From the IMG/VR virus record IMGVR_UViG_3300021254_000035, positions 2,420 to 66,419 of that record: 64,000 nucleotides of DNA. One strand, given 5' to 3'. The notes under the pieces were generated by a model that worked only from the letters and a program-made list of their open reading frames with translations, was not told the DNA's origin and did no database searches. The position numbers and the translations under genes are program-made. The stretch is from a virus. Taxonomy: Duplodnaviria > Caudoviricetes. Of this stretch, positions 30,650 to 48,838 are shown piece after piece (position 1 is the stretch's first letter; each line of letters begins with the position of its first letter).

Positions 30650-33600
30650 ATGAACAACGATAATCTACGTAACCTTTACAAAACGTTTGAAAAAGAAGGC
30701 TATGAGATGCCTTCATACGAAGACTTTGAGAAAGACATGCAGGACGATAACAATCTGCATGATGCGTGGGAAACCCTCAAAGGTGATGGTTACGAACCTC
30801 CAGAGTATGACACCTTCAAGACCGATATGGGATTTGGTGCCGCGCCAGAAGCGCAGCCTGCTGAAACCGTATCAGTTTCAGGGCAGGGAACGCCACAAGT
30901 GAACTATAGTCAAGCTGTGTATGATCGTTACGAAAACCAGGTGCCAAAGCGTACAGGTAACAATGATGCGGTAGTGCAATCGCTTGATGAGATAGCCGCT
31001 GAGATGGAACGTGAGAAGCCTGGTAGTAGTAAGCCTGGATTCTTTGAAGGAATGAGTTTTGAAGGAATGGGTAAGCAGCTAAAGGAAGGTGGAAAGAATG
31101 TCATTGGCAAAATCCTAGGCTTCTTCGACAACAAACAAGATAAGGGATCGATAGGAAATATGGAAGCCGCTGCCATGCCTACGGAGGAACAGATGGTGCA
31201 GCATGGTGGAAGTATTGGTTATCAAGCTGGAGAATCAGTAGGAACTTTGGCAGACACAGCTGGTACTGGTGCTGTTGTTGGTAATGTGATACAAAAGAAC
31301 GCACAGCCTGCATTCTATGAAGAACAACAGCAGAGAGTTGATCCTGCAAAGCCACTTGTTGAACAGGAGTTAATGAATGATGACAGAGGCTTTGGTGAGT
31401 TCATGCAGCAGGGAATAGATCGTTTCAGAAAAGGTCAACAAGAAACAGATCCTACTTTAGACGATGAAGGTAATCAATTGCAAATACCTTTGTACAATCA
31501 AGAAGCAGCTCTTAGAGGTGATATCCAGCGCATTGATGCTGATGTGATGAGGAAGTTCAACGAAGAGCTTGCAAGTAACAAACAACAGGCTGGCGAATAC
31601 ATGCGCAACACACCTGGTAATCCATTTGCACCTACTGAAGTAAACTTGATGAATATCGGAAGGGAAGCCAACAAAATAGCGGATCCTTCAAAAGCCATCG
31701 AGTCAGCCATCAAGTATGCTGATGAACAGACAAAGGACATGCCTGATGAGGTGAGATACCAAGTGATTGAAAGCCTGTTAGGGCAGATGGAAGAGCAGCT
31801 GATTAATGAGCGTATTCCTTCAGGAACTGCAGAATATGTATTCTGGAGAGGATTCAAGGACAGTGACCTTGGCAGGATTATGTCATCGGTTGTTGATACC
31901 AACTACGAGAAATACCTTGATCAAGTTGCTGCATCCCGTTACAAGGCAGGATTCTGGGAAAATCTGGGTAAGGGAGCAGTAACACTGGCCAGTGACATGT
32001 GGGAATATGTACTTCCCGCAGGAGCTGCAGGAAAAGCAGGTAAATGGGCAGGGGGAAAGATCTCAGGAAGGATCATGAACGACCTTATTCGTAGAGGCGT
32101 TCCCAAGTCGCAGGCTGCAAGGATAGCTGAGCGATTGACAGCCAATAGTGTAGGTAAGAGTATTCTGCAGCATGGAGCCAGCAATGCAGTGACCTTTGGT
32201 ACTGCAGGAGCCATCAGTGGAGCTGTTGAGGGATTGACAGAGCCTGCAACGGTTGACGGAATGAGTATTGAGCGTGCGCGTATGGAGAGAGATATGCACA
32301 TGCCCGATCCAATATTTGGAGTTGACCAGCATGATGCCCTTGATGCTAAGATCAAAGAAGCTGAAGCCGAACAGTACAGTGCCAAGAATCTGTTTGGTAA
32401 GATATTTGAACGTGCCGCATGGGGTGTTGGTACTGGTGTGGCCACCAGCTTTGGTGCACCTCTAGGTGAGATCATCGGCCATGGCCGTGGTGTGGCAGGT
32501 AAGATTCTTGGTGATGCCACCCGCTTAGGAGTGAACGCTACCGCCATGACTGGAGTAGGTGCATTGGAGCAAGCTACCACTCCTGGAGCGCAGCCGTTGA
32601 CATTTGAAGATTTGTTGCTGGCTGAGGCTAACAACCTTCTTACCTTTGGAGCATTAGAGGCAAGAGGTATCTACAACCGAGCAAAGAACTATCGCAACAT
32701 CCAGCAGTTTGAGAAAGCATACGACATTACAGATGCTGACAAGGCGAAAATGAAGGATCTTGGCTATGGTGACATGCTTGATGCTGTTGAGCAGCTGACA
32801 ACTGGTAAGACTGCAGGAGCGCAACCGGCAGAAAAGAAACCGAATGTCATCACAAGGCTTGTGAACGGTGAGCGGGTGTCGGAAGTGAAGATGCCACAAA
32901 CCAAAGAATCCAGCGGAGTTGATCAAGTGGAGTCACAGAACCTGAAGAATGGTTTGCAGCAGCTTGTGAATGACTACAACGCTGGTAGGATCAGCGAGGA
33001 AGAAGCCCGTAAATGGTATGGGCTGATTACTGGTGACTATTCACAGCAGTTACAGCCGATAACAGGTGTTTCCCAACGTACAGACATTTCTCCTGAAGGG
33101 AAAGTGCAGCACTTTGTTGACTATCTCGATGCTCAGGGCAGAAGAGTACGTACGGTTGAGGCAAAGACCGAAGAGGAGGCCAAGCAGCTGTCGGATGACT
33201 ACCGCCAAGAAGCACAGCTTAACCAAATTTCCGCTTTGGAGGATATGGTGACGGATAAGGATGTTCAGGAGCATTTTGCCGAAACAGTGCGCAGAGACTT
33301 CGGTGGATCGTCAGGTTCCGAAACTGAAGGAACGGAAACAATAAGTACAGGTGGAGTACGTGAGAAGATCGACCGTCTTAATGATCTTCGTGCCAGGAAG
33401 AAACTGCATGAGATGGGTGAAGGTAAGGCACTGACCGCCGAAGAAGAACGGATGCTTGAAGAAGGATTAAGTACCTATGAGCGTGATGTAGCCAACATCT
33501 TCGGACGAGAGGATCAGTTGCAAGAAGCATTGCAGAAGCAAGCTGAAGGCGGTGATCTGTTACCATACGAAGAATCGTTGATCCAGTCGGCACAGAATAT

Positions 33601-36600
33601 ATACAGGAATCATGCTGGCCATAGCAAGGCAGCAAGTGACTTTGCCCGTGAGTTTGAGAAGCGCAACGGTATGGAAGAAGGAACGCTTTCACAGATCTTG
33701 GAAAAGAAAGATCGTAGTGAGGCAGAGCAGAAAGCCGTTGATGACTATGTTACCGACTTGCAGGAATATCTGAGACCGAGAACGGAGCAGGTAGAGATTG
33801 AAGAAGCTGGAAATCCCACAACTAATGCGACGGAAAGCGTGGTTGATATGGCACCAGGTGTAGAACCGCCAACTGAAACGCCCGCTGGAGATGCAGCACA
33901 AACAGCAGTTGCTAGTGAGGCATACAGCAAAGGCCAAGCAGCTGTGCAGGCTAATGACGCTGCAGCCATGAGAAACATCGGCTATGAGATGCAGAAGGCC
34001 GACGCGAGAATGTCTAAACTGTTTACCGATGATGAAGCCAAGGCTATTTATGATGCTGTTGAGAGTGGTGATGAGGAAGCTTTGGCTACTGTAACACAGA
34101 AGCATACTGAACCAGCTAAGCTGGATGCTATTGAGAAATTAAAGGAAGCCCATGATGCCATGAGAGGTATTGAGGATGCTATCAATGATTCATACATTGG
34201 TAATGATGAGGCTATCCGCGCAGAGATTGAGCCTTATCAGAACGAGCAAGGGGAGATTGTGTTCTTGAAGCTATCAAACGGCAGCTCTGTGTATTATGTT
34301 TCTGGTGACCTTAACAATGCTTATGGTACTGTTATGGTTGCCTATACGGGCGAAGATGGATCTGTTCGCCATGCTCAGGTTCCAGTCAAAGAGATTACTG
34401 AGACAGGCACACCTGTAGGTATCGATGACTACGTTCAGGTTCGAGCCGAGATGGATAGAAAAGTGGATGATGAGCGATACAAAGGTATTATCAGCGGCAC
34501 AGAACTTAGAAAGGGTAATCAAGTTGAGCTTACAATGGGTAATACAACTGGTGTGTTTACCGTAGATGGGTTCTTTAGTAATGGTGATGTGCAACTGAGA
34601 GATGAAAACGGTGGTGTCATACGCATGACTAAGGATGAGGCTTTGGAAATGATGCAGGCCACCGAAGATAAGCGCATTAATCAAGATTTGGCTGATGAGC
34701 AGGCAGCATACAAGGAGGCTGAGCGAGTTAGGCAGGAGGAAGAAAAAGCCCGTTTGGAAGCCCAGCGGAAGTTTGAAGAGGAACGCCGAGGGAAGATTGC
34801 CGAGATCCAGAAGACTGTTGTTGATGAAGCTGCGGCACGACCACAGCCTACTGAACAAAATGAAGAGGCTACTAAGTGGAACGGGCTGGCCATTGCCGAT
34901 GTTGCCGATGCTGAAGGTGTGAGGAAGTATCTGCTTGACAAATATGAGAGCGAGGCCGATGCAGACACATTCATGAATGAGCAGCGAAGGATCCTGAAAA
35001 GTCACCAGCGCGATGAGATTCAACCTGAGATAGACAAGATTCGCAAGCAGCTTGATGATTATACAACAGGTAAGGTTGAGCTTAGTGATGAAGAGCTGAC
35101 CGGCTTAATCACTCAGTTGTCCGGGTGGGAAACTGAGCAGAACCGTTTGAACGGTGTAGCTGAAGCCTTGAAGGATATCTCTGATGCTTTGCCAAAGACA
35201 TACGCTGAGCGTAATGCAGATGTCTTGAAGAATTCTACTCCTTATGAGCAGCGAATGGCCGAGTTATCCAAGGCAAGGACAAACGAAGACAAGGTACGTA
35301 TTGCCAGAAAGCTGTATGGCAATGATCCTGATGTTGGTACATTGTTTGATGATCTTGATGTTCCTGCAGATGCGACGGAGCTTGTATCGATGTTCCTGAA
35401 ACCGAGAGTGCTGAGATGGGAAGGTGTTGATCAGGGAGGTGTTCACCTGAGAGGTGTTGAAGACGAGCTGGGTAAGCACATGAAGCGAGGTGTTGGACGC
35501 AACGTTGACAGTAACAACATCAATACATTCCTTGCCGCCAAGGGTGAAGGTAAGACTGTTGACGAGTTTGTTCACGACATTTGGGAATCGCCAGAGAACC
35601 ACCCTGTTGGAGCGGAAGAGAAACGCTTTGACGATACTGAAATCCGAAATGCACTTATTAACCTTCTTCTCTCTGCCAAGAATCCGACTGAGATCAGAGA
35701 TTTGATTATTGATGGAAGGATTGCCGAAGCAGAAAGGATTTTGAAAGAAGTTCAGGACAGAGAAGAAGAGTATGAAATGCAGTCGTGGGCTGAGTCTTAC
35801 CATCTCCCTGCATCGGAAAGAGAAAGCTATGAGAGTGAATTGTTACGTGTCGGTGAAGAATATTCTTCGCTCAGTGATGATGATATTCAGAAAATTAATG
35901 CTATCTTTGCAGAACAAAACGAGTTAAGAGATGAACAAAATCGAAGAAGCCAAGAAATGGATCGCCAGCCTATCGTCGCAGGAGCTGGTGGAGAAGGTTC
36001 AGGAGGCCAAGCAGAAGTACAGCGACAAGGTGCCGAAGCTGATGTTACGAAAAATCAAGGAAGGCAAGTCAACAGAGAAGGAGAAAACCTTACAGATGGC
36101 ACAGCTGTTCCTGGTTCAGATGTGGCTGGAGGAGCACAAGGAGAATTTGAGCGATCAATAGACGAGCTTGGAAGGATAGAAGAAGAGTGGAACGATAAGA
36201 TTTTAGACTACGTTTCGCAGCACTATCCGACGCAGGCTGTTGTATCAGCGCAGACTAATTCGCCCAAGGGCAAGGCTGAACGCAAGGCCATGCTGGAAGA
36301 TCCTGTTTATCAAGAAATGGTACGCCAGCAAAAGGAGGCGTTGGATGCAGCCGACAAGAAGGTTACGGAAGCATACAAGAAAGAGGAGGAAAAGCAAGCT
36401 AACTTGAAGCCTAAGACGGAGTTAGAAGATAATCAAAACTACTCCAACGAAGAACGAAAAGCACTACAGTATGTTGATGGTGAGAGTATCGACGAATACG
36501 TGAAGCGTAACGATGGTATTGCCATGAAGGAAAAGTTGGAAGAAATGTATCTTCGTGGCAAGTATGGTGATCAGTGGAATACGATTGAAGAACTGTTCAG

Positions 36601-39600
36601 TAACAAACTGACAAATGAGAATGCCTATGATATGGGCGTGCGTGCTGGCAGCATGGTTGAGGACAATCATGAAGGCTATGCACTATTGAACCTCCTAAAC
36701 AACATTCCTGTTGATGCAGTGCTGCCATTCTATGATGGCGTGAGCAGTTTTACCGCAAGGCTTGCAAGAGCAATCAACGAGACCAACACAAACCCGACGG
36801 ACGGCCAGAAGGAAGCTGGTAATTACAAGAAGGGACATTTGCAGTTTGGTGGTTACAACTTTACGGTTGAGAACCCAAAGGGTAGTGTGCGCAGTGGTAA
36901 GGATGCCAGCGGCAAGCCGTGGAGCATTACCATGCACAACACATACGGTTATCTGACCGGCAAAGGAAACCTTGGCAAGGATGGTGACCATCTGGATGTG
37001 TTTATCAATGACGATGCAGATCTCGACAACTGGAACGGGAATGTGTTCGTAGTTGATCAGGTGAACAGTGACGGCAGCTTTGATGAGCATAAGATCATGT
37101 ACGGCTTCGACAACGAGGTTGATGCTCTCAGGAACTACCTGATGAACTACAGTAGGCCATGGCATGGCATGGGTAACATTACAGGTGTTGACAAGGCCAC
37201 CTTTGACAAGTGGGTTGAATCAAGCAACCGTAAACAGAAGCCGTTTGCCGAAACAAGGTTTGGTGACAACAGGGATGTTGTGGAGAAGGTGATGGATGGC
37301 ATTGAGAAGAAGAAGGAAGTTGCTGATCTGAGCGAACCAAAGATTGAGAACAATCATCCTTCTTCAAAAGTTATACAAGGTCTTGAAGATATAACTGTAG
37401 AGGATTTTCTTGAAGGTGTACGTGGAGATATAGAAAGCATTCTTAGTGATAACGATCTTTCGGATATTGTTACCATTAAGGGTTTAGCTCTTCATGGAAG
37501 TCGTATGCGTGGTGATGCAAGAGAAGATTCCGATATTGATGTTGTGGTGGAATATGAAGGAGACATCAGTGAGGATGGGCTATTTAATATTCTCAGCGAT
37601 GCCGATTTGGCTGTCAATGGTATTCCTGTAGATATTAATCCGATTACCAAAGGAAAAAGCGGTACACTAGAGCAATATATGGAGCAAAGCCGTAAGTATG
37701 ATGAAGAAATAGCTAAGAAAAGACAAAAGACAGAACAATCTAAATATCAATTATCATCTGAAACAGATTCAGAAGGAAACAGATTTTTTGAGAAAGAAGG
37801 ATCAATAGATTTGTGGACACTTCCAAAACTCTTTGCAAAGGCAAGACGGCAAGATGCCCCAATACGTTTAACAGAACGCAACCTTCAACACATTATTGAC
37901 GAACATCACAAAGAAATCGGTAATACAGATGATGTGCTTGCATTCCTTGATAATATATTTAATAACGCTCCTGTGCTCAGAAAAGCTAGAGGAAGAGGAA
38001 TGTTTGTGGTTGTTGAGCAGGAAAAAACTGATAAAGCAGCCATTATTAAGTTGATGCCAAGCGAAAATGGCGATTATTACAACGTTGAAACAGCTGGCTA
38101 TTACCGAAAGAATAAGTGGAAGGAATATGAAGATGTGATTGCTGATCTGCGCGAACCAGATCAATCAGATGCCGTTACCGATGTCTCTAAGCCCCAAACT
38201 TCCAATCAAAACGGCAGGAAGTCGATTAACGCTGAGACGCAAACTTCATCTTCTGAGGGCAAAGATAAGAAAAATATCGATACGCTCCAAGAAAAAGGGA
38301 ATAAAAATGCGAAAAAGAATGAAAACAAGATTGAGGATGTTGGCGAAGTGATTGCAGGTGCCAGGAAAGACATGCGCCGAAAGATTGCCGAGAGTATAGA
38401 CAGTGCCACCGAGAAGACACTGATTGACCTTCCATTCTCGAAAGCCTATAAGAAGCCAGACTTGAAGAAAGCTGTTGAAGAAGGTGCGCTCAGGGAAGAG
38501 GATGCCACCTTCTATGATGCATTCTTCTCTACCATGGTCAACCCAAGCAAGCCCAAGGTAGTACAGTCGGAACTTCGAATGAAGAAGTGGAAGCCTGACT
38601 ACAAAACAAAGGTTGAGAGATGGGCTGAGGCTACTCATGAAGCCCTGCAGGTTTTGAAGGAGTTTGTTGAAGCCACAGAGGAACAGCGTGATGAGATCAT
38701 CAGAAAGGCACTAGAAAACAAATATCCGATGCGTGATGTTGAGCTGGCTGAGATTGAGAAGCGCAAGGAATGGAACAAAGACCGTGACTTCAAAGCTGGC
38801 GACAAGACCACACCCAATCCGTTGTGGGTGACATACGAGGTAATGAAGCAGCTTGACTACAAGCCAGGAGAGAAGCTTGATATTCCTTATGGACTCCTGA
38901 AGGCCGACGCACACGGTACGGGATATTACCTGTATAACGCCAAGAACGAGACAAACTACAATTTCCATCCGCAGAGTGTAGAAGATGGAATATCGGATAT
39001 CGTATGGCTTGCAAAGCTAAAGCGAGGTGATGCTGATATTCAACATCCTATCAGCTCTTTCAGTACACCATCTACCAAGAGCGAGACAGGTGAGACTGGT
39101 CGCTACAGAGTTATTTGGGGAGGATCTAACATCAAGACAAGAGACTTTGACAACAAGAAAGAGGCAGATGAGTTTGCCGCCAGCAGAAAGCAACAGTCAC
39201 TTGTTTCACCCATTCGAGAGGTGGTACGTCGTTTCGGTTACAAGGTTGTTTTCCGTAACCCACTGACTAATGACAAGATCGTTGTAGATGATCAGGAATT
39301 TGACACTAAGAATGAGGCACAAGCCTATCTGGAAGACAACTATGATGAGCTGAACGAGAAGCTGAATAATATTCTTTCAGAACAGAGGAAGGATAAAAAG
39401 AGAACGGAACTTAAAGCAGATGACCTGGTATTCGTGTCCATGGTTAGAGGAAACGATAACAAATGGACATACGGTGTGATCATGGATAAGAAGTACGCCA
39501 ACTACTATGGTATGCCTCGCGTTCTCAAAGAAGGCTTTGCAACCCGTGATGAGGCTAAGAAGTATGCTGAAAGCATTAAGGATGAGGTTTTCAGTACCTA

Positions 39601-42600
39601 TAAGAACTATAAGACAAAGCAGAAGAACATTGTCTATTTTGATACTGGTGAGAATTCCAGACTTGGTGAGGATTACCGAGGCGGCAAGGATGTGAGTGCA
39701 GAGGATTTCATGAACACATTCGGATTCAGGGGTGTGCAGTTTGGTAACTGGACAAACCAGGCAGACCGCCAGATGGCCGTTAACCAAGCTTATGATGCTT
39801 TCCTTGACTTAGCTAAGCTTATAGGTGTATCTCCACAGGCACTGAGTCTGAACGGTGAGTTAGGTATTGCATTTGGTGCAAGAGGTGCTGGAGGCTTTGC
39901 CGCCCACTATGAACCAGGAGAGATTGTCATCAACCTGACTAAGACACAAGGTGCAGGCAGTCTTGCACATGAATGGTGGCACGCCCTGGACAACTACTTT
40001 GCAAGAGCAGCTGGAGAGAAGGGAGGCATGGTTACTGATGACTCCAGACTGGAGATGCGTCCGGAGCTTCGAGATGCATATAACACATTGACCAGACAAG
40101 TTGCAGCAAGCAAGTATTTTGCACGTTCAAAAGCCAAAGGCGACTACTGGGGACGTATGCATGAGGTTACAGCCCGATTGTTAGCCGAATGGGTAGATCA
40201 GGAACTGAAGAAACGTGGTGAGTTGAACACTTTCCTTTCGCGAGGTGCGAACACTGAACGAACGATGGAGAATAACTATCTTTTCTATGAGGTGATGCAA
40301 AAGATCGCAGGAAAGGAAGTAATGCCATTTGAAGAGTTCAAAAAGACCGACGAAGCCATGAGTGGATCGCCTTATCCATCAAAAGCTGAAGTTGACAGCT
40401 TTGCTGATGCCATGCGCAACATCTTTGACGTGATGCAGGAGCGAAAAGATGAAGAAACGGGTAATATAATGCTTTATGAGCCTGATTTTGAGTATAATGC
40501 TCAGGAACCGAGACCACGCAGAAGGAACCCGAAGGTGGTAAGCCATATAGAAGGTAACCTGTTCCCTGAAGAGAAAGAAGGCGAGTTGTTTGATGATAAG
40601 AAGGCCGCGGCAAAACCGCAGCCTACCAAGAAGCCAGAAAGCAAGCTGGAGAAGTTGAGTGATAAGCAGCTGTTGGAAGGTATCGGACAGAACGCTAACA
40701 GCAAGGACTGGGATCTGTATATCGATGAGTATGACAAGAGACACCGAGATGAGTACCAGGATGCTTTGGCCGCATACTCAGACATGCTGGAGAAAGAAAA
40801 CGTCAGTTTGGAAGATGCCTATGGCATGTATGCTGATGTGGCAGCCAAGTGGAACGACAAGGGCTTTGCAAGTGATGAGCGCAGTAAGCTGATGGCTCAG
40901 GTGGATGCACTGGAGGAATATGTTGACCGGCTGGAGAGCGAAGCTATTGAGCGTGAGGAAGCCGAAGAGGAAGAAGCCGCTGCAAAGCAGCAGCCTGCAG
41001 AGAAAAAGGCACGTTATGAAGAGGATAAGACTGATGTAAGAGCGCATGGTTACGACTTGACCAAGATCAGGCTAAGAGAGCTTGGTGAAGGTGAGGTCAG
41101 CCATGTGGAGAGACGTTATGTTGAGAACGGCTCATTCTCGTTTACAGGCGGTGAACATATTGAAAGTGCCGCCGATGTAGCCTACATTTTCAGGCAGCTA
41201 GAAGATGCAGCCGTAGAAAACTCCTTTATGGTGTTGATCAAGGATGGTGTTCCTACGGTTATCCATCTTGCAATCGGTTCATATAATGCTGTTCATGCAC
41301 CCATCGAGCAAGCTTTTGCAGCATACAAGGAGATTGATCCCGACAATGTTATTTTCCTACATAACCATCCAAGTGGGAACTTGGTAGCTAGCCGAGAAGA
41401 CCTTGCATTGCAGAAGAAGGTGGAGGCCATGTTTGGTAGAAAGGCTCTTCCTGGCATTATCATTAATACAAAAAGTGGTAAGTATGCAGAATTCAACAGC
41501 GAAGGGAGCAATCAAATTGGTTTGCGTCCAAAATCTGTTGATAAGGATATTCCTGTACGTGTATTCAATTTCTCCAAGCAGGTGTTTGCAAAGGACTGGA
41601 ACCCAGAGACAGCTTTTGAAGGTAGCGACTCGCGGAGCATGGCTGCATTCGTGAGCAGTCACAGACTTGGGGATCACAACAAGATGAGTCTGATTGTGAT
41701 GGATCAAGCTGGTCATATCACTGGTAATATCTTCCTTCCATGGACTACCACCAACGAAATAAGCAAACAAGCCAATGCGCTGCAGATTGCCACCTATGTC
41801 AATCAGATGGGTGGAAGATATGCTCTTATTTACGGTAATACGACAGTTACTGACAGCAAAGACATCAAGATATTGAAAACAAACCTTGATGGATACAATG
41901 TTAAACTTCGTGACGTTATGACCATTGAAGGCAGTGCACATGATAAAGGTTTGCTTTTTGAGCCTGATGTGGTGTATAAGGGCAGTGCCAAGGACATGAT
42001 GGAAGCTGTAGGAAAGCAATATCATGGAAAGGAAATGGTGTTCTTAGACAAGACTCATGGCGAGGAGCAGCTGTTGAAGGATCTTGGTATGTATGACGAA
42101 GTGACCAAAATGAAGGGATCACCTGAATATGATGCCATCATGGAGCATTTACGTAAGAATCTTGGAAAAGCAGGTGCTTCTTATAACCGAGATACGAAAA
42201 AAATATATATCTTTGCACCAGAAATGACTTCTTCTTATGCAGAAGAGGCATATTTCCATGAGAATATCCATGCCATTCTTGATGATTGGTATGGAGATGG
42301 CAAGAGAACGATTGCGGAACGGTTCTGGAACGTCATGCCAGATGACGGTAAGGTTAATAAGGCATACGTTAAAGAAAAGAGTACCGATAAATCAGAGTAC
42401 GCAGAGGAGGCATTTGCCTATTGGCTGAGCCGTTCAATGCAGGACGGTGATGTTGCAGACTTCCTCAATTATTTTGACGAAGCAGATAAAGAGAGAATTA
42501 ACAATATTCTTAAAACATTTGGCTATGACGCAGAAAAAGAATCAGAAAGAAGAGTTCGTTTGCGGAGGAATCAACATGTTTCGGAGGCTCAAAGCGGATA

Positions 42601-45600
42601 TTCAGAAACTGACGAAGGGTTATCAAGATCGGAAAGCGAAGGAAGCGGAGCAGGAGTAAAGAGCGGTACATTGGCCTACATTAAAGATGTAACCTTGCCA
42701 TCCGAATCCAGCACTTCGGCACAAGGAGACCAATATACTAAACCTGCTGGGGTTGACTCTTCTGAAGGCAAAGATAAGAAAAATAGTGATACGCTCCAAG
42801 AAAAACCCCAAAAATATGATTATGGGGAGATAAACACTGGCGAAAAGGAACGCGAAGCAAAGGAGCTGGCTACAAAGGCAGTGATGCAAGTGCTTGATAA
42901 TTCTGGTGTGAGCTACCATGAGGTAAGCCAGGCTGAGGCTATGGCTGTGCTTCGTAAGACGCAGGCACTCCGTGAAGGTCGTTCGTTCCATGTGGATACC
43001 CCTGTATTTGTGAGCAATGCATTGAAAGCTGTTGAGGGTATCAGGCAGGAAAAGGCCACGCCTGAGCAGTGGCTGGCCATGATTCAGAAGAACGGCGGCT
43101 TGAAGGCCGGAGAAGATAAATGGCTTGGCCTGAGTGACTGGCTGAAGGAACAGGCGAGCGCAAAACGCTCACTTACAAAAAATGAAGTGCTGGATTATAT
43201 TCGTGAGAATCAGATACAGGTCGAGGAAACAAACTACAAAGAGTACTTCGATGTTGATGACAATCCTCAGATGCAGAAGTTCCGCAAGGAGTTCGATGGT
43301 CTTGTTGAAAAGTATGAGAGCGAGAAAAACGCCGTTGAGCAAGAAGCAAACACGTTCAACGACGAGATGTATCAAAAGTATGGAGGAGGCTGGGCAAACG
43401 ATCCTGAAAGGCTTAACGAGGAAGATAGAAAGCGAAACGACGACATGGTTGAACGTTGGAACAACATGAATGACAGTGATCCTCATGATCTTGCTTTCCG
43501 GGAAATGGTTGATAATTACGGAGACGATTTCGAAATGGCCTTTGAGGTGAACTACGGTAACGGGAATCTGGAGCCTCAGATGGATATGTATGATGAAGAG
43601 ATTTCAGATGCAGCCAAACATTTCCTTCAGTTTGAAGATGAACCCATTAATTCCACTCGTTTGAGTTACACAACTGAAGGATTAGAGAACAAGAAGGAGA
43701 TTGCCCTAACCGTTCCAACTATTGATCCGTACAACGAAAGCGACAATATTCACTTTGGCGATGCCGGAGGTGGACGTGCTGTTGCGTGGATTAGGTTTGG
43801 TGAAACAACACTACCTGAAGATGGAGGCGAAAAGAGAAGGGCTGCAGAAGCGATTGAGGCTGATAATGCCAAATGGTATGCTGCCCATCAAGATTTTGCC
43901 CGATACGGAATTGGTGATGCCGACGGATCCTTATCGAAGGAAAGTGAAGAGCGTAACGAGCGTCAACGTAAGGCGTTCGCAGAAGCCTATGCCGTTCCAC
44001 AAACCCGCAAGGTGCTCGTGATAGATGAGATTCAAAGCAAGAGGCATCAAGACGCACGAGAGAAGGGCTACATAAGCGATGATGCGAAATCCAGGTTGGA
44101 AGAAGCACGCAAAAATGTAGATTTTGCTCAGCAGGAATACGACAACTATGTCGTCATGCTGAAGAAGCAGCACAAAGGAGAAGCGTTTGAGGATTTCTAT
44201 TCCGATTTGCCAGTCCTGCAAAGAGAAATGGTTGACAGTCTTGAACAGGATGTATATAAAGCATCAGAGGAGTTTGAAAAAGCATCAGAAGCAGCAAACA
44301 GCGTCCCCGACGCCCCGTTTGAGAAGAACTGGCATGAACTGGCCATGAAGCGTATGCTCCGCTATGCTGCTGAGAACGGCTACGACAAGATAGCCTGGAC
44401 TACCGGCGACCAGCAGGCTGAGAGGTATAATATCGGCAACGTCGTGGAAAAGATCATATCCTATGACTATCCTGAGGTGAATGATCCTGACGGACGCAAA
44501 ACCAAGAAGATTGAGGTGCGCTTGAAAGATGGTGAGACAATGACAATGCGTGTTGGTCAGAACGGTAAGGTAATAGAGGGACGAAGTGACACCGAGGGTA
44601 AGGATCTGACGGATGTTGTTGGCAAAGAACTTGCCAAGCGAATCATGGACGGCGAAGGAAAAGATGGTACGATTTTCGATGCCAACAAGGATCTTCCAGC
44701 CAAGGTAATTGAAGGTGAAGGTCTCCGAATCGGTGGCGAGGGCATGAAGGGTTTCTATGACCAGATGATACCGAGATTTATGGATAAGTACGGAAAGAAG
44801 TGGGGTGTGAAGACTGGTGAAGTGGAGCTTCCTGGACTTGCTCCCGCTGGAAAGTACTCTTCAAAAACGGCCAAGATGTGGGCTATTGATGTTACTCCAG
44901 AGATGAAGGAGAGCGTGATGCAGGGACAACCTATGTTCAGTGTCGCAGGCAAGGAGCCAATGGTTACCTCAGAGGGAGTTGTATATGGATATACGGACGG
45001 TAAGGATATCTATTTGACAGATGAGGGAATTAATCCTGAGACTCCAGCACATGAGTATGGTCATCTTTGGGTGAAAGCCATCAAGAAGAACAGACCTGAT
45101 CTTTGGGAGAACATCAAGGATCTGATGAGAGAAGATGAGGTCTCTCAAAAGATCTACCAGAAACTGCTTGGTGACAATAACTACAATCAGATCCATGGTG
45201 ATGAAGATGAGCTTTACGAGGAGGTGCTTACCAACATGGGAGGTGCAAAGAACCGCGAAAGGTTTGAGCAGGCTGCAAGGGAAGTTCTTGATGAAGCTGA
45301 GGGCATGGATGAGACCATGAAGATTGCAAATGTGATCAGCAAGATTCGTCGTGCTTTCCGTAAGCTGTGGGACTGGATTGGTAAAGACTTGTTTGGAATT
45401 AAGAAGTTCAAGAGCGTTGACGAGGTTACCGACAGGATGATGTATGATTTTGTTGAGGGTACGGACGTGAAGACTGGAGTTGAGGATGCTGTAATAAAGC
45501 AGCCTACAGAACCAAGAAATGTTTCTTTCCAGGCAGGTAAGGGAAAGCCAAGGCAGAAGAAAGGCGAAGGCATGGCTTCGTACTTCAACCGACTGAGAGA

Positions 45601-48600
45601 GTGGGAGAGAAGGAAGATGGCCGAAGAGGATGAAAGTGATCCTATGCCTATCATGCCCGACACTGAAGGTATTGAAGACTTTGAGGAGCTTAAACGTATT
45701 CAAGACGAATACCGAAAGCTGTACCAGGAATGGGAAGTGAGACACGGTATTGCTGATTTGGAGAATGCTGATCTTGGTCTTTATGATGTAGCAACAGGGA
45801 AAAAGGATGTATCACAGCCTACCGAAGAAGAACAGTTGCTGGATCAAGAGATTGATGCCAGGGTATTGCAAGACATCGGTAATGCTGTTGGCTTTAACAC
45901 AACTCCAGAAGGAGCACGCAAACAGGTGAAGTATGCTGTTATTAACAGAAGAAAGAATCTGGAAAGTGCGAGTGCCGAAGATGCCATATTTATTCACGAC
46001 CTGACAAAACGACTCGATGATATAGCTAAGAACATATCCTCACAGGGAGGAGAAAAGGTTACGGGCAAGATGCTGAGGGAAGCTTTACCCGACATCATTG
46101 AAGGTACATACGGCTATGATATTGTGAAGGCTGACAACGGTGAATGGATCAGGATGGATCACAGAGCCGCTATGCCTATTCAAATGACACCATCTTTGCA
46201 GAAGGTTCTTGATGATATCAAGGACTGGTATGATGAATTCTATCATGTTCTGGAGGATGCAGGATTGAGAGGCAATGCTGGATATATTGCCGAGGGCTAT
46301 GTGAACCACATCTGGGATAAGGAAAAGAGTGATCCGAAGGCATGGAAGGAGTATGTTGAGAACTATCAGCGTACAAAAAGCCCGAATATGAAGAAGAGAG
46401 AGATTCCGACGTATGCTGAAGGTATTGCTGTTGGGTTGGTTCCAAAGTTCACTGACATCACCGATATCATGTCATACTATTCAAGGAGCAACAACGAAGC
46501 TGTTGCCAACAGAAAATTCCTTGATGATCTGGCTTGTATCAATATTGATGAGCTGAATAAGGATGGCGAGGTAGTGAGATCATTGCCTTTGATTACTAAC
46601 GTTGAGCCGTACCATTTGGATAAGGAATCATATACTAAGCCATACGATGTTCCTGGAGTGGGTGATGTGTGGGTACATAAAGCAGCAAAGCAGCGTTTTG
46701 CCAGCGTGTTCGGTACGATGAGAACAGCGGATATTCCTGACTGGGTTCATAGTCTTGGCAAAGGTTGGGACGTTATTGGTGGCACAGCTAAGAAGATACA
46801 GCTGAGCTTTAGCGGTTTCCATGCAGGAGCCTTGACGGAGGTTGCTTTGGCACAGATGCGTCCTGACAAAGGCATGAGGGCATTGATGGAGTACGTCGTA
46901 CTGGACAGCATCAAGAAAGGCACTTTGCCAGCTTACGCCCATCCAGAGGACTTTAAGCTTGCTGCAAAACATCTGGTCAACCTTGGTGCTACCGCCGACT
47001 ATGCAGCTGCAGACGTGAACATGATTACCGAGAAGCTGAGGAACTTTGTACGAGATCTTGCCAATGAGCAGAACTTGGCAAAGAAAGGTATAGGAAAGGC
47101 CATGACACCTGTAGCAGCGATGCTTGACTTTATGAACAAGGGAATGGACACTGTTCTTTGGAACTATATCCATGATGGTTTCAAGATTGCCTGTTTCAAG
47201 ATGTTTGCTGAGCAGGTTGAGAAGAGACTGAACAAGATTTATGGGCAGAATGGGCTTGATGGGCAGAATGGGCTGAGTAAGGAAGAGATGAGAGAACAGT
47301 TACTTGATGAGGCTGGACAGTATGTCAACGACACGTTTGGCGGTCAGTATTGGGAACTGTTGGGTGTCACACCGGCACAACTCAAATGGATGCGCAGAGC
47401 CTTGCTTTCACCCGACTGGCTGGTGAGCACACAGCGTCATTTCTTGGCAAACTTCGGAATCGGCAGCTTGTATAATGAAGGTGGGTTCCTGGAGTATATG
47501 AGATACAACGCCGACAACTTGAAACGAGCTTTTGGTGTGGACATACCAAGGAATGAGTTAAGAAGGTTTAGGAGCAAGAACGCCAAGCAGTGTTACATCT
47601 TGGGCGTATGTGTATTCTTCTATAGCCTGATGAACGCCATCAATGCCATTGTAAGAAAGTCTGATGAGGACAATGAACGCATGAAGGCAGAGGAAATCAG
47701 AAAGACTGATCCAAACTACCGTTCACCCTACGAGCTTGCTTATCCTGAAGGCATGAAGTGGTATGACTATACCATGTATGGCAATACGATTGGTCAACAG
47801 ACACACCTTCTTCTTGGTCGGTACAAGGATGGAACCGAATGGTATGCACGATGGGGTAAGCAGTTCAGGGAATTCCCAGAGTTGTTCATGGGACGGCATG
47901 GTGTTGAGTTCCCAGCCCCGATGATCGAGCGCATGATGGGTAAATCAAATCCAATGATCAGCTACATCCGCGACGGTCTTGGCACCTTGGATGTTCACGG
48001 TTTTGACATTCCGTATCAAGAGAAAGAAACTGTTGAGAAATACGGCAAGGAGATAGCTTTCCTGTCAATGACTGCCAAGCATTTCCTTCCGTTCAGTGTT
48101 CCTACGCAAGCAGACAAGGAATTCAAGACATGGGATTTGGTTATGCCTAGTCAGAAGGGATTCACTCGCTGGAAGGCCGTTGATTTCTTCAAGACCTACA
48201 TCAATGCTGGTGATATGCACGGAATAGAACGCACATACCATGCAGCTGTGATGAACAACCTGAATGCTGAGGAGTGCCTGCAAGCAGCTATAGCAAGCGT
48301 GAAGGCCACCCAGAAGAAGGAGCTGGTTGATGGTGTTACTGATCTTCCAAGTGCATTCGAGGCATTTGACAATGCTAAGACATTGAAGGAAAGACAACTG
48401 ATGCGAAAGAAGATCATCCAGTATATGACCGGTGAAGACTACAGGGCATTTACCATGGCTGATGCAAGAGAGAAAGCATTATCATTCTGGGAAGGTGATA
48501 AGGAACAGACAATCACAAAGGATAATGACAAGTACATCATGCAGGCCACAGCTGAAGATATCCGTGATGACTATAAGATGGATGCCCTATACAAGAAGAG

Positions 48601-48838
48601 CAACGAACGGCTGAAGCAGCTGCATGAGATTGAAGATGCAGGAAAGGACACGCGCCGTTGGGAGAATTCCTTTGGAGAGTGGATAGATATCCATGATATG
48701 CTACTTGATTACCGCCGCGACATCAAGGATATGAAGAAAGATCTTGATGGAAGTAATGACAAGGAGGTTATGGATAAGATCAGGAAGCTCAGGAAGGAAG
48801 TGATGACAAGAATAGACAACATGGATAAAGCTGAATAA
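30650..48838 (+). CDS. Giant polyvalent internal virion protein (6062 aa)
   Basis: Recognisable domains (approx. nt): inorganic pyrophosphatase-like GNYKKGH..ENPKGS.R..DGDHLDVF (36800-37250); Pol-beta nucleotidyltransferase HGSRMRG..DSDID (37480-37700); PBECR/RelE-like RNase (37760-38130); LPD5-like KIEDVGEVIAGARKD (from 38325); LPD1 zincin HEWWH (39640-40450); JAB/RadC HNHPSG plus a degenerate copy (41100-41930); zincins HENIH and HEYGH; DEIQS domain (43000-44930). Confidence 0.85.
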   Translation: MNNDNLRNLYKTFEKEGYEMPSYEDFEKDMQDDNNLHDAWETLKGDGYEPPEYDTFKTDMGFGAAPEAQPAETVSVSGQGTPQVNYSQAVYDRYENQVPKRTGNNDAVVQSLDEIAAEMEREKPGSSKPGFFEGMSFEGMGKQLKEGGKNVIGKILGFFDNKQDKGSIGNMEAAAMPTEEQMVQHGGSIGYQAGESVGTLADTAGTGAVVGNVIQKNAQPAFYEEQQQRVDPAKPLVEQELMNDDRGFGEFMQQGIDRFRKGQQETDPTLDDEGNQLQIPLYNQEAALRGDIQRIDADVMRKFNEELASNKQQAGEYMRNTPGNPFAPTEVNLMNIGREANKIADPSKAIESAIKYADEQTKDMPDEVRYQVIESLLGQMEEQLINERIPSGTAEYVFWRGFKDSDLGRIMSSVVDTNYEKYLDQVAASRYKAGFWENLGKGAVTLASDMWEYVLPAGAAGKAGKWAGGKISGRIMNDLIRRGVPKSQAARIAERLTANSVGKSILQHGASNAVTFGTAGAISGAVEGLTEPATVDGMSIERARMERDMHMPDPIFGVDQHDALDAKIKEAEAEQYSAKNLFGKIFERAAWGVGTGVATSFGAPLGEIIGHGRGVAGKILGDATRLGVNATAMTGVGALEQATTPGAQPLTFEDLLLAEANNLLTFGALEARGIYNRAKNYRNIQQFEKAYDITDADKAKMKDLGYGDMLDAVEQLTTGKTAGAQPAEKKPNVITRLVNGERVSEVKMPQTKESSGVDQVESQNLKNGLQQLVNDYNAGRISEEEARKWYGLITGDYSQQLQPITGVSQRTDISPEGKVQHFVDYLDAQGRRVRTVEAKTEEEAKQLSDDYRQEAQLNQISALEDMVTDKDVQEHFAETVRRDFGGSSGSETEGTETISTGGVREKIDRLNDLRARKKLHEMGEGKALTAEEERMLEEGLSTYERDVANIFGREDQLQEALQKQAEGGDLLPYEESLIQSAQNIYRNHAGHSKAASDFAREFEKRNGMEEGTLSQILEKKDRSEAEQKAVDDYVTDLQEYLRPRTEQVEIEEAGNPTTNATESVVDMAPGVEPPTETPAGDAAQTAVASEAYSKGQAAVQANDAAAMRNIGYEMQKADARMSKLFTDDEAKAIYDAVESGDEEALATVTQKHTEPAKLDAIEKLKEAHDAMRGIEDAINDSYIGNDEAIRAEIEPYQNEQGEIVFLKLSNGSSVYYVSGDLNNAYGTVMVAYTGEDGSVRHAQVPVKEITETGTPVGIDDYVQVRAEMDRKVDDERYKGIISGTELRKGNQVELTMGNTTGVFTVDGFFSNGDVQLRDENGGVIRMTKDEALEMMQATEDKRINQDLADEQAAYKEAERVRQEEEKARLEAQRKFEEERRGKIAEIQKTVVDEAAARPQPTEQNEEATKWNGLAIADVADAEGVRKYLLDKYESEADADTFMNEQRRILKSHQRDEIQPEIDKIRKQLDDYTTGKVELSDEELTGLITQLSGWETEQNRLNGVAEALKDISDALPKTYAERNADVLKNSTPYEQRMAELSKARTNEDKVRIARKLYGNDPDVGTLFDDLDVPADATELVSMFLKPRVLRWEGVDQGGVHLRGVEDELGKHMKRGVGRNVDSNNINTFLAAKGEGKTVDEFVHDIWESPENHPVGAEEKRFDDTEIRNALINLLLSAKNPTEIRDLIIDGRIAEAERILKEVQDREEEYEMQSWAESYHLPASERESYESELLRVGEEYSSLSDDDIQKINAIFAEQNELRDEQNRRSQEMDRQPIVAGAGGEGSGGQAEVQRQGAEADVTKNQGRQVNREGENLTDGTAVPGSDVAGGAQGEFERSIDELGRIEEEWNDKILDYVSQHYPTQAVVSAQTNSPKGKAERKAMLEDPVYQEMVRQQKEALDAADKKVTEAYKKEEEKQANLKPKTELEDNQNYSNEERKALQYVDGESIDEYVKRNDGIAMKEKLEEMYLRGKYGDQWNTIEELFSNKLTNENAYDMGVRAGSMVEDNHEGYALLNLLNNIPVDAVLPFYDGVSSFTARLARAINETNTNPTDGQKEAGNYKKGHLQFGGYNFTVENPKGSVRSGKDASGKPWSITMHNTYGYLTGKGNLGKDGDHLDVFINDDADLDNWNGNVFVVDQVNSDGSFDEHKIMYGFDNEVDALRNYLMNYSRPWHGMGNITGVDKATFDKWVESSNRKQKPFAETRFGDNRDVVEKVMDGIEKKKEVADLSEPKIENNHPSSKVIQGLEDITVEDFLEGVRGDIESILSDNDLSDIVTIKGLALHGSRMRGDAREDSDIDVVVEYEGDISEDGLFNILSDADLAVNGIPVDINPITKGKSGTLEQYMEQSRKYDEEIAKKRQKTEQSKYQLSSETDSEGNRFFEKEGSIDLWTLPKLFAKARRQDAPIRLTERNLQHIIDEHHKEIGNTDDVLAFLDNIFNNAPVLRKARGRGMFVVVEQEKTDKAAIIKLMPSENGDYYNVETAGYYRKNKWKEYEDVIADLREPDQSDAVTDVSKPQTSNQNGRKSINAETQTSSSEGKDKKNIDTLQEKGNKNAKKNENKIEDVGEVIAGARKDMRRKIAESIDSATEKTLIDLPFSKAYKKPDLKKAVEEGALREEDATFYDAFFSTMVNPSKPKVVQSELRMKKWKPDYKTKVERWAEATHEALQVLKEFVEATEEQRDEIIRKALENKYPMRDVELAEIEKRKEWNKDRDFKAGDKTTPNPLWVTYEVMKQLDYKPGEKLDIPYGLLKADAHGTGYYLYNAKNETNYNFHPQSVEDGISDIVWLAKLKRGDADIQHPISSFSTPSTKSETGETGRYRVIWGGSNIKTRDFDNKKEADEFAASRKQQSLVSPIREVVRRFGYKVVFRNPLTNDKIVVDDQEFDTKNEAQAYLEDNYDELNEKLNNILSEQRKDKKRTELKADDLVFVSMVRGNDNKWTYGVIMDKKYANYYGMPRVLKEGFATRDEAKKYAESIKDEVFSTYKNYKTKQKNIVYFDTGENSRLGEDYRGGKDVSAEDFMNTFGFRGVQFGNWTNQADRQMAVNQAYDAFLDLAKLIGVSPQALSLNGELGIAFGARGAGGFAAHYEPGEIVINLTKTQGAGSLAHEWWHALDNYFARAAGEKGGMVTDDSRLEMRPELRDAYNTLTRQVAASKYFARSKAKGDYWGRMHEVTARLLAEWVDQELKKRGELNTFLSRGANTERTMENNYLFYEVMQKIAGKEVMPFEEFKKTDEAMSGSPYPSKAEVDSFADAMRNIFDVMQERKDEETGNIMLYEPDFEYNAQEPRPRRRNPKVVSHIEGNLFPEEKEGELFDDKKAAAKPQPTKKPESKLEKLSDKQLLEGIGQNANSKDWDLYIDEYDKRHRDEYQDALAAYSDMLEKENVSLEDAYGMYADVAAKWNDKGFASDERSKLMAQVDALEEYVDRLESEAIEREEAEEEEAAAKQQPAEKKARYEEDKTDVRAHGYDLTKIRLRELGEGEVSHVERRYVENGSFSFTGGEHIESAADVAYIFRQLEDAAVENSFMVLIKDGVPTVIHLAIGSYNAVHAPIEQAFAAYKEIDPDNVIFLHNHPSGNLVASREDLALQKKVEAMFGRKALPGIIINTKSGKYAEFNSEGSNQIGLRPKSVDKDIPVRVFNFSKQVFAKDWNPETAFEGSDSRSMAAFVSSHRLGDHNKMSLIVMDQAGHITGNIFLPWTTTNEISKQANALQIATYVNQMGGRYALIYGNTTVTDSKDIKILKTNLDGYNVKLRDVMTIEGSAHDKGLLFEPDVVYKGSAKDMMEAVGKQYHGKEMVFLDKTHGEEQLLKDLGMYDEVTKMKGSPEYDAIMEHLRKNLGKAGASYNRDTKKIYIFAPEMTSSYAEEAYFHENIHAILDDWYGDGKRTIAERFWNVMPDDGKVNKAYVKEKSTDKSEYAEEAFAYWLSRSMQDGDVADFLNYFDEADKERINNILKTFGYDAEKESERRVRLRRNQHVSEAQSGYSETDEGLSRSESEGSGAGVKSGTLAYIKDVTLPSESSTSAQGDQYTKPAGVDSSEGKDKKNSDTLQEKPQKYDYGEINTGEKEREAKELATKAVMQVLDNSGVSYHEVSQAEAMAVLRKTQALREGRSFHVDTPVFVSNALKAVEGIRQEKATPEQWLAMIQKNGGLKAGEDKWLGLSDWLKEQASAKRSLTKNEVLDYIRENQIQVEETNYKEYFDVDDNPQMQKFRKEFDGLVEKYESEKNAVEQEANTFNDEMYQKYGGGWANDPERLNEEDRKRNDDMVERWNNMNDSDPHDLAFREMVDNYGDDFEMAFEVNYGNGNLEPQMDMYDEEISDAAKHFLQFEDEPINSTRLSYTTEGLENKKEIALTVPTIDPYNESDNIHFGDAGGGRAVAWIRFGETTLPEDGGEKRRAAEAIEADNAKWYAAHQDFARYGIGDADGSLSKESEERNERQRKAFAEAYAVPQTRKVLVIDEIQSKRHQDAREKGYISDDAKSRLEEARKNVDFAQQEYDNYVVMLKKQHKGEAFEDFYSDLPVLQREMVDSLEQDVYKASEEFEKASEAANSVPDAPFEKNWHELAMKRMLRYAAENGYDKIAWTTGDQQAERYNIGNVVEKIISYDYPEVNDPDGRKTKKIEVRLKDGETMTMRVGQNGKVIEGRSDTEGKDLTDVVGKELAKRIMDGEGKDGTIFDANKDLPAKVIEGEGLRIGGEGMKGFYDQMIPRFMDKYGKKWGVKTGEVELPGLAPAGKYSSKTAKMWAIDVTPEMKESVMQGQPMFSVAGKEPMVTSEGVVYGYTDGKDIYLTDEGINPETPAHEYGHLWVKAIKKNRPDLWENIKDLMREDEVSQKIYQKLLGDNNYNQIHGDEDELYEEVLTNMGGAKNRERFEQAAREVLDEAEGMDETMKIANVISKIRRAFRKLWDWIGKDLFGIKKFKSVDEVTDRMMYDFVEGTDVKTGVEDAVIKQPTEPRNVSFQAGKGKPRQKKGEGMASYFNRLREWERRKMAEEDESDPMPIMPDTEGIEDFEELKRIQDEYRKLYQEWEVRHGIADLENADLGLYDVATGKKDVSQPTEEEQLLDQEIDARVLQDIGNAVGFNTTPEGARKQVKYAVINRRKNLESASAEDAIFIHDLTKRLDDIAKNISSQGGEKVTGKMLREALPDIIEGTYGYDIVKADNGEWIRMDHRAAMPIQMTPSLQKVLDDIKDWYDEFYHVLEDAGLRGNAGYIAEGYVNHIWDKEKSDPKAWKEYVENYQRTKSPNMKKREIPTYAEGIAVGLVPKFTDITDIMSYYSRSNNEAVANRKFLDDLACINIDELNKDGEVVRSLPLITNVEPYHLDKESYTKPYDVPGVGDVWVHKAAKQRFASVFGTMRTADIPDWVHSLGKGWDVIGGTAKKIQLSFSGFHAGALTEVALAQMRPDKGMRALMEYVVLDSIKKGTLPAYAHPEDFKLAAKHLVNLGATADYAAADVNMITEKLRNFVRDLANEQNLAKKGIGKAMTPVAAMLDFMNKGMDTVLWNYIHDGFKIACFKMFAEQVEKRLNKIYGQNGLDGQNGLSKEEMREQLLDEAGQYVNDTFGGQYWELLGVTPAQLKWMRRALLSPDWLVSTQRHFLANFGIGSLYNEGGFLEYMRYNADNLKRAFGVDIPRNELRRFRSKNAKQCYILGVCVFFYSLMNAINAIVRKSDEDNERMKAEEIRKTDPNYRSPYELAYPEGMKWYDYTMYGNTIGQQTHLLLGRYKDGTEWYARWGKQFREFPELFMGRHGVEFPAPMIERMMGKSNPMISYIRDGLGTLDVHGFDIPYQEKETVEKYGKEIAFLSMTAKHFLPFSVPTQADKEFKTWDLVMPSQKGFTRWKAVDFFKTYINAGDMHGIERTYHAAVMNNLNAEECLQAAIASVKATQKKELVDGVTDLPSAFEAFDNAKTLKERQLMRKKIIQYMTGEDYRAFTMADAREKALSFWEGDKEQTITKDNDKYIMQATAEDIRDDYKMDALYKKSNERLKQLHEIEDAGKDTRRWENSFGEWIDIHDMLLDYRRDIKDMKKDLDGSNDKEVMDKIRKLRKEVMTRIDNMDKAE
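35931..36161 (+). CDS. Overprinted 76-aa helical protein nested out of frame in the giant gene
   Basis: K/E/L-rich amphipathic sequence; TATCTTTG -7 box about 20 nt upstream; the main frame here reads as a G/R/Q-rich linker. Confidence 0.55.
   Translation: MNKIEEAKKWIASLSSQELVEKVQEAKQKYSDKVPKLMLRKIKEGKSTEKEKTLQMAQLFLVQMWLEEHKENLSDQ
38250..38295 (-). promoter_or_regulatory. Embedded antisense promoter, copy 1 (46-nt repeat)
   Basis: Minus strand CTTG-N20-TATCTTTG; 43/46 identical to 42759-42804. Confidence 0.6.
42525..42659 (+). CDS. Overprinted 44-aa protein nested out of frame in the giant gene
   Basis: MTQKKNQKEEFVCGGINMFRRLKADIQKLTKGYQDRKAKEAEQE; main frame is an R/S/G linker; upstream AACATTTG is an imperfect -7 box. 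Confidence 0.4.
   Translation: MTQKKNQKEEFVCGGINMFRRLKADIQKLTKGYQDRKAKEAEQE
42759..42804 (-). promoter_or_regulatory. Embedded antisense promoter, copy 2 (46-nt repeat)
   Basis: Minus strand CTTG-N20-TATCTTTG; near-identical to 38250-38295. Confidence 0.6.

Follow-up and report, generated by a model that had tools for sequence, protein, structure and literature searches.

Evidence for a small gene embedded out of frame in the linker of a giant polyvalent protein gene of a ruminant-gut phage

A small reading frame inside a giant polyvalent gene

The window analysed here is a stretch of 64,000 nucleotides (nt) of a Caudoviricetes virus, positions 2,420 to 66,419 of the IMG/VR record IMGVR_UViG_3300021254_000035. 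Our subject is a small open reading frame (ORF) that lies inside an 18-kb gene for a giant polyvalent protein, on the same strand and in the +1 frame relative to it. Comparison with related loci shows that this ORF, at 35931–36161, is a real protein-coding gene, wholly contained in the giant gene, of a new family with members of about 70–96 aa. We call the frame of the giant gene the main frame, and that of the small ORF the small or +1 frame. The features of the locus are collected in Table 1.

Table 1. Features in and around the embedded small gene, in window coordinates (aa, amino acids).
Feature	Position	Strand	Remarks and basis
Giant polyvalent protein gene (main frame)	30650..48838	+	Single open frame, 6062 aa; Pfam and PHROG domains
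Main-frame segment with conserved helices, predicted target of the small protein (residues ~1706–1753)	35765..35908	+	Complex model
A/T-rich, weakly folded island around the ATG (-30 to +20), candidate internal translation-initiation region	35901..35950	+	GC content and fold energy
TATCTTTG box (matches TAnnTTTG), candidate -7 element	35902..35909	+	29 nt before the ATG
Main-frame linker over the small gene (giant-protein residues ~1761–1838)	35930..36163	+	Translation: G/E/Q/A/R-rich, 14% hydrophobic
Embedded small gene, 76 aa plus TAG, ATG start, new four-helix family	35931..36161	+	Frame +1 of the giant ORF; comparative and AlphaFold evidence
InPase and nucleotidyltransferase domains (main frame), downstream of the small ORF	36803..37681	+	Pfam PF18823, residues 2052–2190; PF18765/PF01909, residues 2270–2344

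The window covers 64 kb of the 66,419-base record, which CheckV rates as complete, and encodes an integrase, a DnaD-like loader, a portal and a large terminase. The giant gene is carried by a complete temperate phage of the ruminant gut, and near-identical DNA occurs in sheep and bovine gut metagenomes. The giant protein contains the Pfam domains InPase, Polbeta/NTP_transf_2 (a Pol-beta-type nucleotidyltransferase, residues 2275–2344), LPD1 and RadC. It also matches PHROG families of DarB-like antirestriction and other polyvalent proteins, all in its C-terminal two thirds. Because of this domain content and of the DarB-like matches, we class it among the polyvalent proteins as defined by Iyer et al. 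2017 (PMC5512222). The first ~2000 residues (window 30650–36650) match no Pfam or PHROG family; this N-terminal part is nevertheless the one conserved among relatives.

The small ORF was noticed in an earlier reading of this DNA, which we call the original prediction. We recover it as described, from ATG to TAG and out of frame in the giant gene, with the same N-terminus. The prediction regarded the main frame over the ORF as a pseudo-linker, and the composition of the translation agrees with this. It also saw in the ORF the helical composition of a real protein, unlike the other off-frame ORFs, which on inspection holds as an impression: the other long +1 ORFs of the giant gene look off-frame, being rich in R, S, T, C and L and starting mostly with TTG or GTG. 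The proposed location upstream of a pyrophosphatase/nucleotidyltransferase/RNase block was right for the first two domains; for the third, no RNase family reaches the Pfam threshold. There is one copy of the small gene in the phage.

Within the window alone, the small ORF is unremarkable and no more than expected by chance. It is the sixth-longest +1-frame ORF of the giant gene, after ORFs of 99, 95, 83, 79 and 77 aa. When the main-frame protein was held and its codons were resampled according to the gene's own usage, the +1 frame stayed open in 5.7% of the trials for the window and in 6–49% for the relatives. Stops in the +1 frame require a T at the second position of main-frame codons, so that the +1 frame is open by default where a linker lacks hydrophobic residues. 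The rank of the ORF and the probability of 0.057 given the main-frame protein are what speaks for a chance ORF without selection. The decisive evidence for the small gene is comparative and does not come from this single sequence.

The small frame in diverged relatives

Using the main-frame segment as a bait, we found two relatives in IMG/VR (L001 and L002), about 49% identical in the main frame; in both, the +1 ORF is intact and starts at the same ATG. Further copies came from searches with the small protein (L007, L009, L010, L012, L023, L024 and L025). Among 1.84 billion representative proteins, the family has eight called members, all of them on fragments or in loci with a broken giant frame (contigs L005/L006 and L013–L020). 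Together with the window, this makes 16 distinct loci in which the ATG lies at a homologous or adjacent codon and the frame is open for 69–96 codons. In all 16, the small frame ends shortly after a conserved L-E-E-H-K motif. The giant frame crosses the small one in 15 of the 16 loci, and exceeds 1600 codons where the contig allows.

Other searches returned no match. These were DNA searches for distant relatives in GenBank phages and PLSDB plasmids (query 35450–36649), tblastn of the small protein against GenBank phages and of a free-standing homologue against PLSDB plasmids, a metagenome scan with the upstream main-frame alignment, and a profile search of genome contigs with the small-protein alignment.

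Selection on the two frames

The original prediction held that the ORF is an overprinted real gene and suggested comparing the conservation of the frames among homologues. We translated the same nucleotides of eight sequences (28 pairs) in the three frames, and aligned each frame on its own optimum. For the +1, main and third frames, respectively, mean identity was 0.54, 0.44 and 0.46, and the BLOSUM62 score per residue 2.62, 1.69 and 1.84. The +1 frame was better conserved than the main frame in 27 of the 28 pairs, while the main frame over the small gene did no better than the third frame, which carries stops. The outcome that the prediction named against itself, homologues with stops in the small frame and a conserved main frame, was not seen: the +1 frame is open in 15 relatives. 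Purifying selection is carried by the small frame and not by the main frame, as the prediction required.

The variation at codon positions shows the same reversal. We computed pairwise nucleotide differences at main-frame positions 1/2/3 in 15 loci. Values were 0.375/0.31/0.62 upstream of the ATG and 0.31/0.26/0.57 downstream, in the subgroup with a common module. The flanks therefore have the usual coding pattern, with the third main-frame position the most variable. In the overlap, the values become 0.45/0.41/0.29: most variation falls on the third position of the small frame and least on its second, which is the third of the main frame. The bootstrap intervals of the main-frame third position do not overlap (0.24–0.35 in the overlap and 0.59–0.65 in the flank), and the result is unchanged whether the small frame or the main frame guides the alignment. 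In a sliding window, the variability at this position drops from 30–45 nt before the ATG. The sole indel in the overlap between the window and L001/L002 has 15 nt and is in frame. As a control, the adjoining +1 ORF of the window at 35490–35705 (71 aa) has two to five stops in every relative.

The main frame is also maintained. It is uninterrupted across the small gene in all 15 embedded loci. When the small protein was held and the codons resampled, the main frame stayed open in at most 0.2% of the trials per locus (P ≤ 0.002, 12 loci). As both frames are maintained, this is true dual coding.

Close strains show the same constraint. Contigs 95–99% identical to the window, from three other studies, have one listed difference in 35807–36183. 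This difference (36053 A>G) leaves Lys41 of the small protein unchanged and turns an Asn of the main frame into Asp. The X2 contig has 21 listed differences in the flanks, mostly at main-frame third positions; in run X2, one of the 22 differences falls in a quarter of the length (binomial P ~0.015). Close strains also have 3-nt insertions (GAG or GAA) at window positions 36382–36388, in an E/K-rich main-frame stretch just downstream, which is ordinary in-frame length variation.

Taken together, the comparisons show that the small frame bears the amino-acid constraint and that selection keeps both frames. Over the small gene, the main frame need only stay open and hydrophilic, as a disordered linker; this linker separates the conserved N-terminal ~1750 residues of the giant protein from a variable array of effectors. 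The frame, codon-position and control-ORF comparisons, and the free-standing homologue described below, refute the chance ORF, to which we give practically no probability. That a real gene is overprinted on the pseudo-linker of the polyvalent gene seems to us very probable.

A free-standing copy and other unusual contexts

In two loci, the small gene stands free or the giant gene is split just upstream of it. The first (L015) is a 2.6-kb contig with 35% GC that carries a free-standing homologue of 96 aa, which shares 51% identity over 72 aa with the copy embedded in L009 (E 1e-22). Seven stops interrupt the -1 frame inside this gene. Because of this homologue, we conclude that the family exists also as an ordinary gene. 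In the same contig (L015:663–2566), the homologue follows a gene with a DUF4298 domain (E 2.5e-26) and faces a convergent gene for a 425-aa protein with a zincin-like HExxH motif, a weak SprT-like match and C-terminal zinc ribbons. Kinship of the DUF4298 neighbour with the upstream domain of the giant protein was considered and rejected (hhalign probability 0.4%).

The second locus (L014) lies in a 71-kb contig in which two stops, a TAA 94 nt and a TAG 61 nt ahead of the small gene's ATG, interrupt the main frame (L014:3907–3942). They split the polyvalent gene into a part of more than 1325 aa and one of at least 5219 aa, on either side of the small gene; gene-calling programs list three genes there. 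Stop-codon recoding was rejected as an explanation, given that the two stops are different and that there is no other in the 8-kb locus. This arrangement fits the absorption of a once separate gene through the fusion of two large genes, which came to read across it in the other frame. The original prediction had spoken of such an absorption, and both L015 and L014 are compatible with it. The better conservation of the small frame, together with its free-standing homologue, makes it probable that an existing gene was overgrown by the giant frame, and not the reverse.

In L005 (and in L006; both are short ENA contigs, from different samples), the small gene directly follows an array of clustered regularly interspaced short palindromic repeats (CRISPR), at L005:1–361. 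The array has five 36-nt repeats, starting with GTTG and ending with CAAC, the last one degenerate, with spacers of 30 nt. It ends about 50 nt before the ATG of the small gene, and the upstream part of the giant gene is absent. The repeat had no exact match in genome contigs or viral contigs. This array may be borne by a phage or another element, next to an orphan cassette of the small gene and InPase. At a further locus, the contig L020, the upstream gene lies in yet another frame, possibly because of a frameshift or an assembly error.

Predicted fold and partner of the small protein

AlphaFold2, run with an alignment of 15 rows, predicts helices at residues 3–13, 16–33, 36–44 and 49–70 (predicted local distance difference test, pLDDT, 87.9; predicted template modelling score, pTM, 0.74). 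The small protein is thus predicted with confidence to fold as a four-helix bundle. Searches of Pfam, PHROGs, PADLOC and PDB sequences with the small protein gave only chance-level matches. Those considered for a DNA-binding protein were phrog_13041 (E 0.011) and a GeBP-like DNA-binding domain (E 0.012); the ParB-like phrog_1033 matched a single family member (E 0.0022), also at chance level. Models of defence systems and antitoxins gave no significant match. Structural searches were no more informative: Foldseek found nothing at E ≤ 0.001 in PDB and BFVD, the best hits of VIA-align wide (Z 5.2; SspE, a complex II subunit, MavE) were inside the noise for helical bundles, and ESM Atlas gave no usable match.

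In every embedded locus, the small gene is found where a conserved helical region of the giant protein comes to its end. We modelled the complex of the small protein with the 130 conserved residues encoded upstream (alignment A6, 12 sequences), using our own shallow alignments of 12 and 15 rows. The complex reached an ipSAE of 0.68 (0.60–0.69 in three runs), and the best of three controls 0.00. Of 80 solved complexes, 58 attain this mark, as do 2 of 110 mismatched pairs; these proportions apply only roughly, given that our model was built with our own alignments. The partner has a pLDDT of at least 82, and at least 84% of the contacts are common between runs. The predicted interface involves helices 2 and 4 of the small protein and, on the giant side, residues 76–123 of chain 1, including W83, Y87, I119, N120, I122 and F123, which are among the invariant or nearly invariant columns of alignment A6. 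Folded alone, the upstream segment gives long unpacked helices (pTM 0.31), too poor for a fold search.

According to this model, the small protein might bind the helices of the giant protein encoded directly upstream (motifs W..YH and I-N-x-I-[FI]-A-E), a proposal to which we give a chance just short of even. Such binding would explain the conservation of the main-frame motif that lies just before the ATG.

A candidate internal start site

The surroundings of the ATG have the features that usually mark a start site, being A/T-rich and weakly folded. The 50 nt around it have a GC content of 0.26–0.38, against 0.46–0.55 for the locus. Their fold energy ranks among the weakest 0–11% of 50-nt windows in all 15 embedded loci, with a median rank of 2.7% over the 16 loci that include the free-standing L015. 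The main-frame residue that overlaps the ATG differs among the loci (D, Y, N or E, always xAT followed by G), the ATG itself being conserved. In most loci, a +1-frame stop lies one to six codons before the ATG. No slippery motif is conserved among the loci compared. The conserved ATG, the nearby upstream stop and the lack of a slippery motif point to independent initiation rather than frameshifting. We infer that the small protein is likely made by initiation at the conserved AUG, from the mRNA of the giant gene or from an internal transcript.

The alternative would be a programmed frameshift into the +1 frame, which would produce a truncated giant protein of ~1760 N-terminal aa with a four-helix tail. 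Phages use programmed frameshifts elsewhere, e.g., in the tail chaperone G/GT. Both frames are here on one strand, and the predicted packing on helices encoded just upstream is also what one expects of a C-terminal domain. However, a frameshift does not account for an ATG that is kept at the start of the homology in 16 loci across varying main-frame residues, and the stop just before it leaves almost no room to shift. It also lacks a conserved slippery motif, and the L015 homologue starts at the same Met without any upstream frame. We therefore regard a frameshift as very unlikely, and retain independent initiation.

A possible promoter and the antidote hypothesis

The original prediction gave the small gene its own promoter, with TATCTTTG as -7 box, and suggested that the product may be an antidote or regulator of the toxic pyrophosphatase, nucleotidyltransferase and RNase domains that follow. 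The box is indeed present 29 nt before the ATG; its conservation is another matter. Of 13 loci, five have TAnnTTTG (at -29 in the window, L001, L002 and L005, and at -35 in L009) and eight lack it, and the motif is common by chance. There are six such boxes on the + strand of the giant gene, and the one before the small gene is encoded by the conserved main-frame motif A-I-F-A-E. Bacteroidota-type promoters have TTTG at -33 and TAnnTTTG at -7. The window has no TTTG 19–21 nt upstream of the box. It contains 55 matches to TAnnTTTG, where 40 ± 6.5 are expected and one of 100 shuffles reaches 55, a mild enrichment that is consistent with a Bacteroidota host. A scan of 35500–36500 for sigma-70 promoters and terminators found one promoter-like site, at chance level, and no terminator.

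Two observations are suggestive of a promoter, and only that. In the subclade of the window, L001 and L002, the ~80 nt before the ATG are almost identical, synonymous sites of the main frame included. In L005, the unrelated CRISPR array is followed at once by sequence homologous to the window, which starts no more than ~10 nt from the box. A search for RNA runs with this stretch found none, and two metatranscriptome runs, likely of the source sample, contained next to none of the sampled words from it. An own promoter is in our view a tentative idea, with the odds rather against it.

The antidote fares worse. The small protein is kept at 40–82% identity among relatives in which the domains that follow differ completely. 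As an antidote would co-vary with its toxin and the small protein does not, an antidote specific to one module is disfavoured. Defence and antitoxin models gave no match, and the complex model puts the small protein on the upstream helices instead. We consider it improbable that the small protein is an antidote to the downstream module, and just as improbable that promoter and antidote are right in combination.

The homology edge downstream

The homology between relatives ends within a few codons of the stop of the small gene (window 36141–36170; L001, L002, L005 and L012). Beyond this point, L005 continues directly with InPase, while L001, L002 and the group of L012/L014/L016/L017/L024 have unrelated modules. 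The edge looks like a breakpoint of cassette exchange, and recombination of cassettes has been proposed for polyvalent loci (PMC5512222).

A further explanation is that the nucleic acid itself is what is conserved, either as a recombination anchor for effector cassettes or as a cis-acting RNA; the +1 ORF would then be an incidental, untranslated consequence of a hydrophilic linker that lacks NTN codons. The abrupt end of the homology after the ORF, with different modules downstream, is what an anchor would give. L005 and L018 resemble cassettes that begin with the segment of the small gene, and the hydrophobic-poor linker leaves the +1 frame open in 6–49% of the resamplings. Yet constraint on DNA or RNA produces neither a period of three in the +1 frame nor conservative replacements, in-frame indels and a conserved ATG and stop region. 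It explains neither the confident fold nor the free-standing homologue in unrelated DNA with 35% GC. We put this explanation lower still than the frameshift.

With a translated small gene as the preferred reading, a role of the DNA may come in addition. The doubly constrained DNA is the most conserved stretch of the region and lies exactly where the downstream cassettes change, and it may serve also as a recombination anchor.

Discussion

The explanation that we prefer as a whole, a dual-coded gene with its own AUG and a partner encoded upstream, is likely, if less secure than the existence of the gene. On this explanation, the conserved part of the polyvalent protein would have the small protein as its dedicated partner, encoded in cis. 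The small protein could be, for example, an assembly or stabilising cap beside the linker where the effector array begins. As such a partner, it would not be an antidote to any single effector domain. A broader possibility is that linkers of polyvalent proteins hide genes of partners. In this scenario, the small protein would be translated from the mRNA of the giant gene and assemble, perhaps co-translationally, on the upstream helices to form a composite domain. This domain would mark or control the junction between a conserved delivery part and a swappable effector array (processing, packaging or release), and its DNA would serve as a homology anchor as well. We offer it as speculation that we are inclined to doubt.

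Several points weigh against our interpretation. Most relatives were found with small-protein patterns, which favours intact copies; the frame and codon-position comparisons are independent of this bias. Some copies deviate from the rest. The short contigs L018/L019 (211–369) lack the first helix and have the small gene at the start of a gene for a downstream module, and the short, low-coverage contig L020 (673–831) has the N-terminal homology without an ATG. In L005, L015 and L018, the small gene occurs although the upstream helices are not encoded in cis. The score of the complex is the model's own confidence, and supports binding without proving it. The fold and family searches made here gave no biochemical hint. 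Finally, expression of the small protein is here a prediction from sequence comparison.

Small genes embedded in the +1 frame of a larger gene of the same strand are a known arrangement; the family of the small protein is new. The Rz and Rz1 spanin genes of phage lambda, whose products are both real and bind each other, are a close likeness: there too, a larger phage gene encloses the whole of a small one that is read from the same strand in the +1 frame. In our case, the binding of the partner is predicted only. There is no relation in sequence or fold to Rz/Rz1, the function is not lysis, and the host is an 18-kb polyvalent gene whose overlapped stretch is a disordered linker.

The comS gene of Bacillus subtilis encodes a 46-aa regulatory protein from an internal start, out of frame in the non-ribosomal peptide synthetase gene srfAB, where it overlaps a folded domain. 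It resembles the small gene in being a short gene embedded out of frame in a giant multi-module gene. It differs in that here the host frame is a linker, and both frames are kept over many diverged relatives.

In small viruses, overprinted genes such as B, K and E of phiX174, where one of the two products is compositionally odd or disordered, are usually put down to pressure on genome size. The likeness is that one stretch is read in two frames and one product is odd or disordered. However, the phage has here 66 kb, and it is the overlapped segment of the long frame whose product is disordered, rather than that of the short gene. Genome compression is not an obvious driver in a phage of this size.

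We found no description in the literature searched of the small-protein family or of such genes in polyvalent linkers. A term search of the text of the paper on polyvalent proteins (PMC5512222) found no mention of overlapping genes, frameshifts or linkers in polyvalent genes. Gene callers skip ORFs that are nested in longer ones.

The small gene is a statistically well-supported case of long dual coding on the same strand in a large double-stranded DNA phage. It suggests that stretches which look like linkers in polyvalent anti-defence proteins can harbour hidden partners. These would bear on how such giant proteins are assembled and processed, and on how they diversify by the exchange of cassettes.

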